59,188 nucleotides of DNA from Promethearchaeia archaeon (GCA_046483985.1 JAWOCD010000103.1:1-59188); one strand, 5' to 3'; counted from the stretch's first letter, positions 40,592-47,880 are shown. Numbers and translations are program-made. Notes: generated by a model from the sequence alone, not told the origin.

Positions 40592-41080
40592 TTAAAAATC
40601 AGCCCATTTATCAACCATAGTCCGGGCAAACCGCTTTTGTTCTTCTGTTTCCAAGCAACACGGTCTGAGATTTCGTATCCATTTCACCGGGTCCGCCCCT
40701 TTGGGGATATGCCCACTTTTTGCCGCCCACACCAGCAATAATTGTCCAGTCCGCCCACAGCCCGCTACACAATGAACCACCACAGGATGGTCCTTTTGAT
40801 GATGATCCTCGGTTATTTGCAAAAAACGCTCAACTTGCTCATTGGTGGGTACCCCGTAATCGGGAATATGGATATGATAATAATGAAATTGGTTCGGCAC
40901 ATCATCGCGGTTATCAAATTCACTTGCATTTATGATAACCTTAATGCCTTCTTTCTTATAGCGTTCGATCACAGGAGGATCAGGCCACCATGATGCGGCA
41001 ATTTTTCCCTCCACGATCCACGTGAAGGGCTCAGTTCGATGCGGTTGTCCCCCTTCTGGCCAATACCACGGACGTACCAT
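40592..41080 (-). CDS. Dual-specificity protein phosphatase
   Basis: IPDYGVP acid loop and VHCVAGCGRTG (CX5R). Confidence 0.93.
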   Translation of the reverse strand: MVRPWYWPEGGQPHRTEPFTWIVEGKIAASWWPDPPVIERYKKEGIKVIINASEFDNRDDVPNQFHYYHIHIPDYGVPTNEQVERFLQITEDHHQKDHPVVVHCVAGCGRTGQLLLVWAAKSGHIPKGADPVKWIRNLRPCCLETEEQKRFARTMVDKWADF

Positions 41081-41448: not shown

Positions 41449-41988
41449 ATGAAAAAGTTAATTTTTGATGCTTGTTCGCTCATCTATTTGACCAAGGTGA
41501 ACTTAAAGGAAAAACTTCCATCATTAGGGGAGATAATAATTAGTGAAACTGTAAAGGATGAATTATTAGAAGACCTTGAAAAGTTTGAGGATGCCAAAAT
41601 ATTGAAGGAAAATATTGAGAATCAAACAATTAATTTAAGTAAAATTAAACCTAAAAATATATTTAAGAATGAAAATCTCGGAAAAGGGGAAAAAGAAACA
41701 GTTGAAATATGTATAGAAAATGAAGGAATTCCAATTACCGATGATCATCAAGCACTAAATTTCTCATTAAGTTTTGGATTAAAACCTAAAACATCAGAAG
41801 TTATACTGCTTGACTTATTCAATGAATCAGTTATTGATTTTAATCATTTTATGAAATCTTTAAGAGAACTCTGGAGGATTAAATCCTTAAGTCCAGAAAT
41901 CGTATCTCTATTTAAGGAAAAAGCATATAAAATCAAAAAGCAAAGGAGGAAAAATTATGACAAAACAAATGAATCTACGGTTAGATGA
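41449..41988 (+). CDS. PIN-domain toxin (VapC/DUF3368-like)
   Basis: LIFDACSLIYL, LGKGEKET, ITDD. Confidence 0.85.
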   Translation: MKKLIFDACSLIYLTKVNLKEKLPSLGEIIISETVKDELLEDLEKFEDAKILKENIENQTINLSKIKPKNIFKNENLGKGEKETVEICIENEGIPITDDHQALNFSLSFGLKPKTSEVILLDLFNESVIDFNHFMKSLRELWRIKSLSPEIVSLFKEKAYKIKKQRRKNYDKTNESTVR

Positions 41989-42220
41989 AGACCTTATTAA
42001 GGAATTTGAAGAACTCGCCGAGGAAGAAAATCTGGATCGGTCATCCTTAGTAAGAAAAATCTTAATTGAGGGGCTTCAGCAAGAAAGACTCAATGTTGCA
42101 ATTCAAAAATATACCATGAAAGAAATTGCAAACCTCTCAATGCATGAATTCATCCATAAACTCACGGAGCTTAGTATCTCATCCAATTTAACCGCTGAGG
42201 ATTATAAGAAAATCTTATAA
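41957..42220 (+). CDS. Ribbon-helix-helix / UPF0175-like antitoxin
   Basis: MNLRLDEDLIKEFEELAEEENLDRSSLVRKIL; overlaps the PIN gene. Confidence 0.8.
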   Translation: MTKQMNLRLDEDLIKEFEELAEEENLDRSSLVRKILIEGLQQERLNVAIQKYTMKEIANLSMHEFIHKLTELSISSNLTAEDYKKIL

Positions 42221-42905: not shown

Positions 42906-43826
42906 ATGAAGAAGCAAAAAATTGCATTGGCAATGATACTCTGAACCCTTCTTTGGACCCCTTTCTTTCCTTGCGTTTTCGGTAACACGGAACAAATACA
43001 GATTGAACAGAATAAGGTAATATCGCTCACCTATAAAATCAACCAAACGATAAATCGATATGAAGACCCTGATATTTACACGAATCATACAATGAAGTAC
43101 AATGTTACCTTAGATAATGAAGGTAATTTTAGCATTGAGGTAAAATATGATCTTTCCTTATTGGATCCATCTACCGATCCTCCTGATCAAGATACATCTG
43201 AATTCTCTTTAAATTACGGATTTAATAATGAGACCAAATATATTTCTAATTGTGAAATTGAGGGTATTAACGAGACCTTCTCTTTTATTTACGCTTCACG
43301 GAACATTTCCCTATCTGATTCAGAAAAGTTCCGGGTTGATGGATTAGCATTTCTAAAAATTCCGCCGGGATACAATACCTCACTTATATACAGTGAATTA
43401 AGTTCAATAAACATGTTCGGAACTGAATATACGGCTATGACTTTTATTGGAAATGTATCAAACATATATGGATATGATACATGATGTGCCCTTGACACCG
43501 TTAATGGTTCTATGGAATTGACATTCGATAAAGACACCGGATTGTTATTGCATGCTAAAGAACAATATTTAAATTCAAATAGCAGCGATTATAGCATGTG
43601 GTTCAACCATACCATTGAACGAACGTTAATATTAAAATCTACAGATATCAATACTGAAGAAAATCCCAATGACTTTTCTTGGATTTTCATTATGGCGATA
43701 ATAGTTTTTGCGTCGATTTCTCTTATTGCCTTATATCTTGTATGTGTTCGGAAGGACTTTCATAGGGAGCGAAAAAAGCGCTCAGAGTTAGAACATAGTC
43801 CAAAAAGAAGACTTGAGAAAACTTAA
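42906..43826 (+). CDS. Predicted surface glycoprotein (signal peptide and C-terminal TM) interrupted by two in-frame UGA codons: candidate selenoprotein or pseudogene
   Basis: One frame of 306 codons joins track ORFs 43092-43484 and 43512-43826; UGA at 42942-42944 (codon 13) and 43482-43484 (codon 193); true stop TAA. Confidence 0.7.
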
Positions 43827-43827
43827 G

Positions 43828-43873
43828 ATCTGATGAGATTAGATTATAAATTTTAGAATCTAATTGAAGAGAT
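43828..43873 (+). promoter_or_regulatory. SECIS-like hairpin
   Basis: AUCU-G-AUGAG-AUUAGAUU-AUAAAUUUUAG-AAUCUAAU-UGAA-G-AGAU: AUGA/GA core, perfect 8-bp helix, apical AAA, short basal helix. Confidence 0.45.
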
Positions 43874-43982
43874 GGAAGCCCCATCCATAACTTTTTCAAT
43901 ATTGTTAAAATACTTATGTAGACGATTTTCGGCGTAATATAGATACAGATATGAAAAGAAAATAAAATTGTCAAGTAAAAAT

Positions 43983-45762: not shown

Positions 45763-47880
45763 GTGTCGAATTTGAAACTACTTAATAATGCCCTCAACAG
45801 ATCAAAAAAAATTACCGGATTTACAAAAGAAAATATCATCGCTGCAAAAAGAACTATAGAGCGGTTACAAGAGTCCGAAGAAAAATCCTCTGAGTTGGAA
45901 GAATATTTAGAGGATTTACTTCCACAAGATTTCCTTGACCAAGGTAGAACTTATCTTTCTCGATTACGAGAGTTTATAGACAATTACATTCGGATTAATC
46001 AAGAAGGAAAAGAAGACATCTATTTTTTTATTCGTCTGAAAAATGCCTTAATGAACGAACTCTCACGGTTATCCTCAAATCTCCTGAATTTTAAGCTAAA
46101 TAGTCAAAATATAAAACGGTTTCTCAAACAGAAAGATAGAATAGAAGAAAAGAAAAGTTTAAGCAAGAAATTACAGAACGAGGCTGAATCGTTGAGAGAA
46201 AGATTGGCGGATTTAACTTCAGCGGAAAGCACAAAAAAATATGATGATCGGGGATATATATGGAAAGAGGTAAACCAAATTAAAAAAAGCAAATACAGAC
46301 TGATTAAAGAACCTCAAAATGCTTTACAGTGGGATGAGGTTATAAAAGTCTTCTCAGTTATAAAAGATATTGAACAGAGAATTAATGAGAAAGAGCAAAA
46401 TGAGGAGAAATCAAAAAAGAGGTTTAGCTTTTTTCGCAAGAAAAAAGAAAAACCCCAAGAAGAGGGTATTTTATTTCCACTTGGACCCACTATAGATAAA
46501 TTAGCAAGCGATTCGGATACAGAACACCAGCAAGAGATTTATGAGGATATATTATATCTTTTATATGTCAACGGAATAATTAAAGAAAGCCAATATTCTC
46601 AAGTTGACAAGTCCAAACAAAAGCAGATAAAACAAGAACTTAAAATCTTTTTTGATGATTTGATAAAAACTCTCATAAAAGATTACCTTGAGGCGGAAAT
46701 TGAAAAAGTAAAGAAATTTGATCAAGAATTTGATATTCTCTCTGAAGAGAAAAAATTTAATGTAGCCGATGTAGACAAATTAAGCATAAATGAATATTTA
46801 CCACGTATTTTCAAACATTATTTTGAAGGAATTGAAATGCACTATCAACACAAAATAGATAATTTACGGGAAGAAGAAAATTTCGATGAGACTATCCAAT
46901 CTTATCAAAATGATATGGCAGAATTGAACAATTCTTACAAGAGACTTAATGAAAAAATTGAACATCTCTCCCTCTTCTCGTATCCATATCAAGAAATTAT
47001 TGAACCTATCAGAAAGATATTAGAAAATATAGAAGATTCTATCGAACGGCGTCAAGAAACATATATCGATTATTTAAAGACCTTAAGAACAGAAAAGATC
47101 CGAGAAAACGCAAGGAAATTTATTGATGAGAAAAAAAAGATATTAAATTCATTAATTGATGACGTAAAAGAGAAGACCTCCACAATTCTTCATGGAGAAT
47201 TTCCCCAATTAAAAAAAATGCAACTTATCCTCGAAGATTACAGAAATAAAATCGCCGAAATTAAAAAGGAAGTCTATTCAAAATTAGATACATTTAAAGA
47301 AAATAACGTGGATATGTATCAACAAATAAAAACTTGGGAAAAGAACCTCAATATCAAGCAAAGTCAATTAAATTTCATCATCTCGATGATTTTCAAAAGG
47401 TTATATAAAAATTTTAAAGGTCTTATCGATTCTGAAGGTATGCTCTTTGATAGCTCCTCCGATCTTATTGAGGAGGGTGAAGAGGAAGCACTTCCCATCA
47501 ATTTTGCCCTTTCCAACTTCTTAATTGATAAACTGACGGAGCAAGAACTCAAAGACCGGATTTCCCAAGTAAAGACAAATATTAAAAAGTCAGAACGAGC
47601 ATTAAGACTTTATAAGTCGGAATTAGAAAAATTAGAAGCACAGAGGACAGAAAAAGTGAAAAAACGAGAGGGAATCGATTCGGATGAATTAAAATGCACA
47701 GTATGCCGGCAGAAAATTAAAGTCGGGAAAGATAAGATTATTGTCTGCCCGTTCTGTAAAAATGCATACCATTATCTTTGCGTGGCTGATTGGATTAATA
47801 AATATAATTCTTGTCCGACTTGTCAGAACCAATTTCTTGATCCTAATTCAGGATTATATCAAGTCAAAGGCGAAAATTAA
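45763..47880 (+). CDS. Long coiled-coil protein with C-terminal RING-type (C4HC3) finger
   Basis: CTVC-x13-CPFC-x4-HYLC..DW....SCPTC. Confidence 0.82.
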   Translation: MSNLKLLNNALNRSKKITGFTKENIIAAKRTIERLQESEEKSSELEEYLEDLLPQDFLDQGRTYLSRLREFIDNYIRINQEGKEDIYFFIRLKNALMNELSRLSSNLLNFKLNSQNIKRFLKQKDRIEEKKSLSKKLQNEAESLRERLADLTSAESTKKYDDRGYIWKEVNQIKKSKYRLIKEPQNALQWDEVIKVFSVIKDIEQRINEKEQNEEKSKKRFSFFRKKKEKPQEEGILFPLGPTIDKLASDSDTEHQQEIYEDILYLLYVNGIIKESQYSQVDKSKQKQIKQELKIFFDDLIKTLIKDYLEAEIEKVKKFDQEFDILSEEKKFNVADVDKLSINEYLPRIFKHYFEGIEMHYQHKIDNLREEENFDETIQSYQNDMAELNNSYKRLNEKIEHLSLFSYPYQEIIEPIRKILENIEDSIERRQETYIDYLKTLRTEKIRENARKFIDEKKKILNSLIDDVKEKTSTILHGEFPQLKKMQLILEDYRNKIAEIKKEVYSKLDTFKENNVDMYQQIKTWEKNLNIKQSQLNFIISMIFKRLYKNFKGLIDSEGMLFDSSSDLIEEGEEEALPINFALSNFLIDKLTEQELKDRISQVKTNIKKSERALRLYKSELEKLEAQRTEKVKKREGIDSDELKCTVCRQKIKVGKDKIIVCPFCKNAYHYLCVADWINKYNSCPTCQNQFLDPNSGLYQVKGEN

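Follow-up and report, generated by a model that had tools for sequence, protein, structure and literature searches.

A candidate membrane-anchored surface selenoprotein of Lokiarchaeia with two in-frame UGA codons and a eukaryote-like SECIS element

Results

A single frame of 306 codons contains two UGAs

The analysed stretch of DNA, called here the window, comprises 59,188 nucleotides from a Promethearchaeia archaeon (GCA_046483985.1, JAWOCD010000103.1:1-59188), and all window positions are counted from its first letter. The gene under study, together with the element that follows it, is composed of the following features.

42906-43826, plus strand: complete coding sequence of 306 codons, including two UGAs assigned to Sec, with the TAA stop at 43824-43826
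42906-42983, plus strand: predicted signal peptide (codons 1-26) with a basic n-region, a core that contains U13 and a c-region ending in V-F-G
42942-42944, plus strand: UGA codon 13 (site 1), within the hydrophobic stretch of the signal peptide
42999-43643, plus strand: extracytoplasmic all-beta barrel predicted by the AlphaFold2 model (residues ~32-246), with 12 sequons
43482-43484, plus strand: UGA codon 193 (site 2), forming with Cys194 a U-C pair (43482-43487) in a hairpin loop of the barrel
43677-43748, plus strand: C-terminal transmembrane (TM) anchor predicted from hydropathy (residues ~258-281), with a basic, cytoplasmic tail between it and the stop
43833-43868, plus strand: SECIS element (lokiSECIS, type I eSECIS-like) with an AUGA core, an 8-bp helix, an 11-nt A-rich loop and UGAA
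43870-43896, plus strand: small side hairpin of 5 bp with a loop of 5 nt, adjoining the SECIS core, and a T5 run behind it

Translation of 42906-43826 (+) with TGA read as U yielded 306 residues, and no frameshift, TAA or TAG precedes the stop. The earlier note had joined two track ORFs (43092-43484 and 43512-43826) and 62 upstream codons into one frame of this length, whose only lesions are the two UGAs. This reading was confirmed by the translation, and the hydrophobic N-terminus, the dozen or so sequons and the C-terminal TM segment with its basic tail, which the same note had described, were all found again in the hydropathy profile and the sequon count. A run of 306 codons free of TAA and TAG has a chance probability of about 3e-8 given the base composition of the gene itself. 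Moreover, the family profile aligns with the window gene over residues 4-320 of its 329 positions (E 2e-94).

Translation would begin at the ATG at 42906. A start located downstream of UGA13 was considered and rejected, since no in-frame ATG, GTG or TTG occurs in the window between this codon and codon 63, and the exported domain would be left without a signal peptide. The same 7-mer is present at 42932-42938 and 43474-43480, 1-3 nt 5' of each UGA; it is absent from the homologs and was judged a probable coincidence.

Both UGA codons are conserved and site 2 is always Sec or Cys

Six-frame searches of the genome to which the window belongs (G000) and of its relatives revealed a paralog with two in-frame TGAs (G000:C37), a homolog in G009 that also has two, and a TGA-free homolog in G037. 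When the paralog and the G009 homolog are read through, the first U falls in the hydrophobic core of the signal peptide and the second precedes a conserved Y-Y-x-[DE]-x-x-T-G motif by about 15 residues, while the G037 protein has Cys at site 2 and a signal peptide without U. Together with the G045 homolog, these two-UGA genes (two in-frame TGAs each) match the window gene at both sites at 17-23% identity. Four further two-UGA members were recovered from ENA, NCBI and JGI contigs, so that both UGAs are present in eight distinct members of the subfamily, which come from the same genome, other MAGs and metagenome contigs. Protein conservation runs on across both UGAs.

The profile search found the family in 23 of the 161 genomes of the class, with 30 distinct members. 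At the HMM-aligned site 2 these 30 genomic members have U in 27 cases and C in three. The earlier note had pointed to orthologs as a means of telling Sec codons from mutated Trp, Gly or Arg codons; among the homologs, UGA is retained at both codons or Cys stands at site 2, where Trp, Gly or Arg never occurs. The invariant columns of the family are site 2 and one Gly, and site 2 is the only invariant Sec/Cys column. In the window copy, U193 aligns one residue before this column, which is occupied by its own Cys194, so the exact register of this copy is ambiguous by one position. A few relatives have Cys in the hydrophobic core near site 1, where the alignment is unreliable, and a clear Cys counterpart of site 1 was established in none of the relatives.

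A profile search of 1.84e9 representative proteins returned 114 relatives. About 15 of these metagenomic proteins are full-length, and all of them have Cys at site 2 within a conserved C-G-[LIM]-G motif. Of the fragments, about 47 have their last residue immediately before site 2 and about 45 their first residue shortly behind it, a pattern typical of selenoprotein genes that gene callers have cut in two. Many of the fragments terminated at site 2 end in C-x-x or C-x, implying C-x-x-U or C-x-U motifs in many relatives. In all four fragment clusters whose called ORF lacks a signal peptide and for which DNA was available, the frame extends at its 5' side through a hydrophobic-core UGA into a basic n-region, and at its 3' side it runs on through the UGA of site 2. 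The source records name the members "hypothetical protein" of Lokiarchaeota or Promethearchaeia MAGs. A word-indexed protein search gave no match near full length to the window protein (P0001), but since the members are divided by gene callers at their UGAs, this result carries no information.

A SECIS element of the hdrA/vhuD type follows the stop codon

The SECIS element starts 6 nt past the TAA stop and is composed of AUGAG (43833-43837), two helix arms (43838-43845 and 43857-43864), the loop between them (43846-43856) and UGAA (43865-43868). The hairpin that the earlier note had placed after the TAA is thus real, and only its coordinates had to be shifted by one base. The same side hairpin follows the SECIS of the homologs and of one hdrA/vhuD subtype, and the T5 run behind it is probably the end of the transcript, with a putative terminator role.

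The genome contains four hdrA-vhuD pairs with in-frame TGAs. An element composed of AUGA-N, an 8-bp helix, a loop of 11-12 A-rich nucleotides, the second arm of the 8-bp helix and N-GA/AA-N is located 3' of each vhuD, and the same element was found behind 19 of 20 vhuD genes from relatives. The covariance model R1 was trained only on these 23 hdrA/vhuD SECIS elements (four from the own genome and 19 from relatives). Scoring with a model of Asgard SECIS elements was among the checks named in the earlier note, and R1, which is independent of the window element, gave a match at 43825-43876 with 46.1 bits (E 1.6e-9), the only significant one in 59 kb. A second match in the window (41961-41997, 18.7 bits) was dismissed as chance, as it lacks the loop and lies inside an RHH gene.

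Behind the homolog loci L003, L002, L032 and L132, R1 scored 41.8, 35.4, 29.2 and 37.8 bits, respectively. Most other U-bearing members have a match of 17-32 bits at or overlapping the stop, and no match was found behind the Cys forms. In the whole G000 genome (4.06 Mb), 11 matches reached at least 34.6 bits, the next one had 20.2 bits, and the window gene ranked third. These 11 comprise the four training elements, the window gene, its paralog, two NiFeSe-hydrogenase genes, PrxL and two further UGA-bearing ORFs. The nine matches inspected each lie behind a known selenoprotein gene or a UGA-containing ORF; for the two hydrogenase matches, no UGA-containing frame was seen. One of the two further ORFs (L092) is a frame of 98 codons with one in-frame UGA, encoding a small TM protein with an acidic tail, about 80 nt upstream of a 44.8-bit match (G000:C8:27190-27241, +). 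It may be another uncatalogued selenoprotein, or its UGA may simply be a stop. The other (L099) is a beta-grasp-like ORF with two adjacent UGAs, followed by a 34.6-bit match (G000:C18:75187-75238, -).

Within the family, the helix of the element is paired in 95.9% of cases and double changes occur in 8 of 8 pairs. The covariation score, obtained from an alignment fitted to the model, is 0.912, compared with 0.244 for shuffles (0 of 500 reached the observed value) and at most 0.16 for slid partners. Compensatory changes are visible by eye in three elements. Conservation and covariation of the hairpin, which the earlier note had also raised as a check, are therefore both present, with compensatory changes and all eight pairs covarying.

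Other methods were less informative. With the Rfam SECIS models, no match at E up to 10 was obtained for the window hairpin or for the selD 3' UTR, which makes Rfam uninformative for Asgard elements. The selD 3' UTR gave no match to R1. Minimum-free-energy folding of 43820-43900 resulted in z = -1.6 and a pairing different from that of the SECIS, so thermodynamics alone does not expose the element.

The hdrA/vhuD SECIS elements (L021-L024, L069-L088) fall into two subtypes; with a side hairpin after the 3' core and a longer enclosing lower stem, they resemble three-way junctions. The subtypes differ in the 3' core (UGAA or UGAC) and in the sequence of the lower stem, and the window SECIS belongs to the UGAA subtype. 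It is nearly identical to a vhuD SECIS of a related genome (L078), which fits the published idea that new selenoprotein genes borrow an existing SECIS.

The position of the stop relative to the element was also compared. The stop codon of the paralog falls in the apical loop of its SECIS, in L134 the stop abuts the SECIS core, and in L003 the UGA of the core is the second of two UGA stops (2482-2487). These element-adjacent stops indicate that nearby UGAs terminate translation and distant ones are recoded, as in eukaryotes. In several members (L003, L032 and the second gene of L033), the true stop is a UGA inside or touching the SECIS core, with the distant UGAs assigned to Sec. UGA stops that touch the core are consistent with a minimum-distance rule.

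The genome encodes a Sec machinery and uses TGA as a stop

The following components of Sec synthesis and decoding were located in the genome.

C17:67637-67725: tRNA-Sec (61 bits)
C17:67961-69118: SepSecS, adjoining tRNA-Sec
C17:62760-63590: EFSec-like gene, in the same cluster as tRNA-Sec (235.7 bits, just under the bacterial selB cut-off)

The selD gene itself has one in-frame TGA. TGA terminates 244 of the 1581 long frames in G000, and a genome-wide reassignment of this codon was rejected on this ground, as the genome shows no change of the code.

The product is predicted to be an anchored beta-barrel

The AlphaFold2 model, built from an alignment of 40 rows, has a mean pLDDT of 87.6 and consists of an N-terminal helix, about 12 long strands and a long C-terminal helix. 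Relatives share the layout of the signal peptide, in which position -1 is a small residue and a conserved L-P follows. The signal peptide is predicted to be cleaved. The 12 N-x-S/T sequons (4.2 expected) are all located within residues 46-234. The C-terminal TM segment, part of helix 256-305 of the model, is conserved in the family alignment.

No relevant Pfam or NCBIfam match was obtained for the family (0 of 40 members), and a profile search of PDB sequences returned no match. Structural alignment of the predicted model (VIA-align) gave LmcA (7n3v_A) as the best match (Z 13.2, rmsd 3.9 over 188 residues), the next having a Z of 10.4. Foldseek likewise placed LmcA first (E 1e-5), followed by LolA-superfamily, LppX-like, CD36/LIMP-2 and lipovitellin-type barrels. 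Open barrels of the LolA/LppX/CD36 type enclose cavities for lipids or lipoglycans; fold matches of the predicted model at TM ~0.4-0.5 do not prove lipid binding.

The modelled domain is an all-beta barrel and has neither a thioredoxin nor a hydrogenase or AIRS fold. Sec193 is located in the loop between strands 173-188 and 198-208 of the model, and counting the strands back from the TM anchor suggests that this loop lies at the membrane-distal end of the barrel. The mature product is thus predicted to be a glycosylated barrel at the cell surface, anchored by its TM helix and bearing a single loop residue of the Sec/Cys type. Next to site 2 there is often a second chalcogen, as U-C in the window copy and as C-x-x-U or C-x-U in many relatives.

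The early UGA occupies different positions in two sister clades

In all eight two-UGA members, the U of the signal peptide lies 11-14 residues before a typical predicted signal-peptidase site, and the segment preceding it consists of basic residues followed by 7-10 hydrophobic ones. The retention of this pattern indicates that the segment before the UGA is translated. In the maximum-likelihood tree, the members that share a pattern of U and Cys form a single clade in each case, and the branches are long.

U in the hydrophobic core and U at site 2: 7 rows, support 94/82
U in the n-region and U at site 2: 10 rows, support 100/99
U at site 2 only: 7 rows, support 96/91
Cys at site 2: 18 rows, support 100/98

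The Cys clade is sister to the clade of the window gene (support 97/93), and the window copy itself sits on a long branch (1.68). With midpoint rooting, the Cys forms fall inside the Sec forms, which suggests that Sec is ancestral and that the switch from Sec to Cys occurred later. In two f2 genomes (G041 and G039; L101/L033 and L102/L034), a Cys-form and a Sec-form gene of the family stand in tandem.

A sister subfamily (L107-L118, L126 and L127, from genera g2/g11 and one f2 genome) has its second in-frame UGA at the end of the n-region, shortly before the hydrophobic residues begin and often within [KR]-U-x-x-C. In L111 and L112, from two genomes, this UGA is the fourth codon past an in-frame TAA. 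Canonical start codons are often missing in the subfamily, and a GGAG/GGTGA-like motif is found just upstream. The early UGA is missing from all Cys forms and likewise from the Sec members of f2 whose only U is at site 2.

Genomic neighbourhood

The C37 paralog and its orthologs are located next to rpoB, between a divergent upstream gene for 259 residues and a downstream multi-TM gene. The latter encodes a protein of 146-160 residues without a Pfam match (L002:408-848, -; L003:2560-3042, +; L032; L033), which may be a membrane partner of the selenoprotein. The window copy, L132 and L134 form a second lineage within the clade, and around the window copy the neighbours conserved at the paralog are missing. 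By the genes that neighbour it instead, a protein of 705 residues with a C-terminal RING finger (45763-47880, +) and a dual-specificity protein phosphatase (40592-41080, -) are encoded. Both are eukaryote-like signalling domains typical of Asgard genomes.

Discussion

The presented results are best explained by a real selenoprotein that belongs to an uncatalogued Lokiarchaeial family of membrane-anchored surface proteins, and we assign to this reading a probability of roughly 0.87. Sec insertion itself is inferred from the conserved UGAs, the Sec/Cys pair at site 2, the SECIS element and the Sec machinery of the genome. The proposal of the earlier note, an exported and membrane-anchored selenoprotein with two Sec UGAs, is supported by the homologs, the SECIS model and the covariation. 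Both UGAs, located about 890 and 350 nt upstream of the element, would be recoded to Sec by Sec-tRNA and an EFSec-like factor, with one eukaryote-like SECIS directing the recoding at both of them. The product would then be exported through its N-terminal signal peptide and held at the surface by the C-terminal TM helix, exposing a glycosylated LmcA/LolA-like beta-barrel. The invariance of site 2 and the C-x-x-U or C-x-U motifs of relatives hint at a selenol/thiol redox or chalcogen-capture site that would act on a hydrophobic ligand in the barrel, a function drawn from motif logic that we consider doubtful.

The role of the first UGA is a separate matter. Sec13 falls in the part predicted to be cleaved off, and we know of no precedent for Sec in a cleaved signal peptide. 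The early UGA occurs at different positions in sister clades and always together with the catalytic UGA, which fits a translational role better than a structural one. We hypothesize that the most likely role of Sec13 is translational, as an early selenium checkpoint. If Sec-tRNA is scarce, synthesis would be aborted at UGA13 after 12 residues, and decoding of this codon may prime the second UGA for efficient decoding. The stronger form of this idea is that UGA13 is a dedicated checkpoint: the Sec would be discarded with the signal peptide, translation would stop after about 12 residues when Sec-tRNA is limiting, and the ribosome-SECIS complex would be committed to decoding the catalytic UGA efficiently. 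A selenium gate, already suggested in the earlier note, is supported to some extent by the retention of the UGA throughout a deep clade and by the early UGA that the sister clade has elsewhere. We put the dedicated checkpoint forward tentatively, the balance being somewhat against it. It would follow, with the same reserve, that no truncated barrel is exported and that two sister clades evolved the early UGA at different positions, one in the hydrophobic core and the other in the n-region.

A second reading retains the selenoprotein at site 2 and takes the N-terminus as an uncleaved signal anchor, in which Sec13 would function within the membrane, e.g., in a selenol/thiol relay. The depth of the UGA in the hydrophobic core is fixed in the eight members, the n-region [KR]-U-x-x-C of the sister clade resembles a redox motif, some relatives have Cys in the hydrophobic core, and the model shows a helix at residues 2-20 with a pLDDT of ~80. 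However, all members have a typical signal-peptidase site with small residues at -1 and -3 followed by the conserved L-P, and the early UGA is placed differently in two clades and dispensed with in the f2 Sec members and the Cys forms. Moreover, the family alignment shows no conserved Cys in the C-terminal TM helix that could act as a partner. We therefore regard an uncleaved anchor as improbable.

Decoding of UGA as Cys, Trp or Gly, by leaky reading or local reassignment, is less probable still. The frame would be open under any sense reading of UGA, but TGA serves as a regular terminator in this genome, the UGA-free relatives always have Cys at the aligned site, a SECIS match stands behind most UGA forms and behind none of the Cys forms, and tRNA-Sec, SepSecS, an EFSec-like gene and a Sec-containing SelD are all encoded. 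A recent pseudogene, in which two nonsense mutations would be accompanied by an AU-rich hairpin of chance origin, had been held at least as plausible in the earlier note and is excluded for practical purposes: the copy has two stops, lies on a long branch and is outside the conserved synteny, but the same two UGAs recur in eight members at 17-23% identity, there is no other lesion, conservation spans both UGAs, and the element reaches 46.1 bits with a SECIS model trained independently of it, the genome background being ~20 bits at most.

The selenoprotein reading can be compared with known systems. The Lokiarchaeial HdrA-VhuD, VhuU/FrhA and PrxL genes have the same AUGA...GA core, 8-bp helix and 11-nt A-rich loop near the stop (PMC4989117; PMC11227280), and one element serves several UGAs both in HdrA-VhuD-type genes and in the window gene. 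The window protein is, however, unrelated to the catalogued Lokiarchaeial families; it is predicted to be exported and membrane-anchored, unlike a cytoplasmic redox enzyme, and has a UGA in its signal peptide. Its resemblance to LmcA and LolA rests on the predicted model, as no sequence relation is detectable, and the archaeal host, the TM anchor and the invariant Sec/Cys loop residue set it apart. To our knowledge, no barrel of the LmcA/LolA type has a Sec/Cys loop residue. LmcA of Mycobacterium smegmatis (7n3v) is likewise an elongated beta-barrel of the cell envelope, with cavities and a proposed role in lipid binding (PMC8972800). Thioredoxin-fold oxidoreductases with C-x-x-U share this motif with many relatives, but not the fold, the window copy having U-C in an all-beta barrel.

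The closest parallel in decoding is SELENOP, which is also secreted and glycosylated and has several UGAs decoded from a SECIS in the 3' UTR. The first of these UGAs acts as a bottleneck and so determines how much full-length protein is made, and the downstream UGAs are then decoded efficiently (PMC5727441). SELENOP is not homologous to the window protein and differs from it in having two SECIS elements, many C-terminal Sec residues and its first Sec in a mature thioredoxin-like domain, not in the signal peptide.

None of the archaeal selenoprotein families catalogued so far corresponds to the present one. Seven families are given for Asgard archaea in the 2024 survey (PMC11227280) and eleven for archaea in the 2026 review, whose text does not contain the words signal peptide, membrane protein or secreted (PMC13188914). 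These surveys were mainly homology-driven, and their families are essentially cytoplasmic redox enzymes (PMC11227280; PMC13188914). The SECIS search of the 2016 Loki study gave no further candidates (PMC4989117). Among 40 members, no homology to the SelD, FrhA/VhuA/VhuU, FrhD/VhuD, HdrA, FdhA, PrxL, AhpF-N-like or DsbA-like families was found with Pfam and NCBIfam. The family is thus new to this literature; the recoding mechanism is already known, and the UGA in the signal peptide is the new aspect.

Summarizing, the family is widespread, with more than 100 clusters at 50% identity, and is annotated everywhere as truncated "hypothetical proteins", and scans with SECIS models would recover many hidden genes in Lokiarchaeial genomes. 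One 3' SECIS acting on two UGAs over about 890 nt would represent long-range decoding, as in eukaryotes. Moreover, the conserved Sec codon in the signal peptide points to the use of UGA and Sec in translational control, at which work on SELENOP had only hinted. If true, the checkpoint codon would be the first Sec codon selected for translational control and not for the chemistry of the residue.
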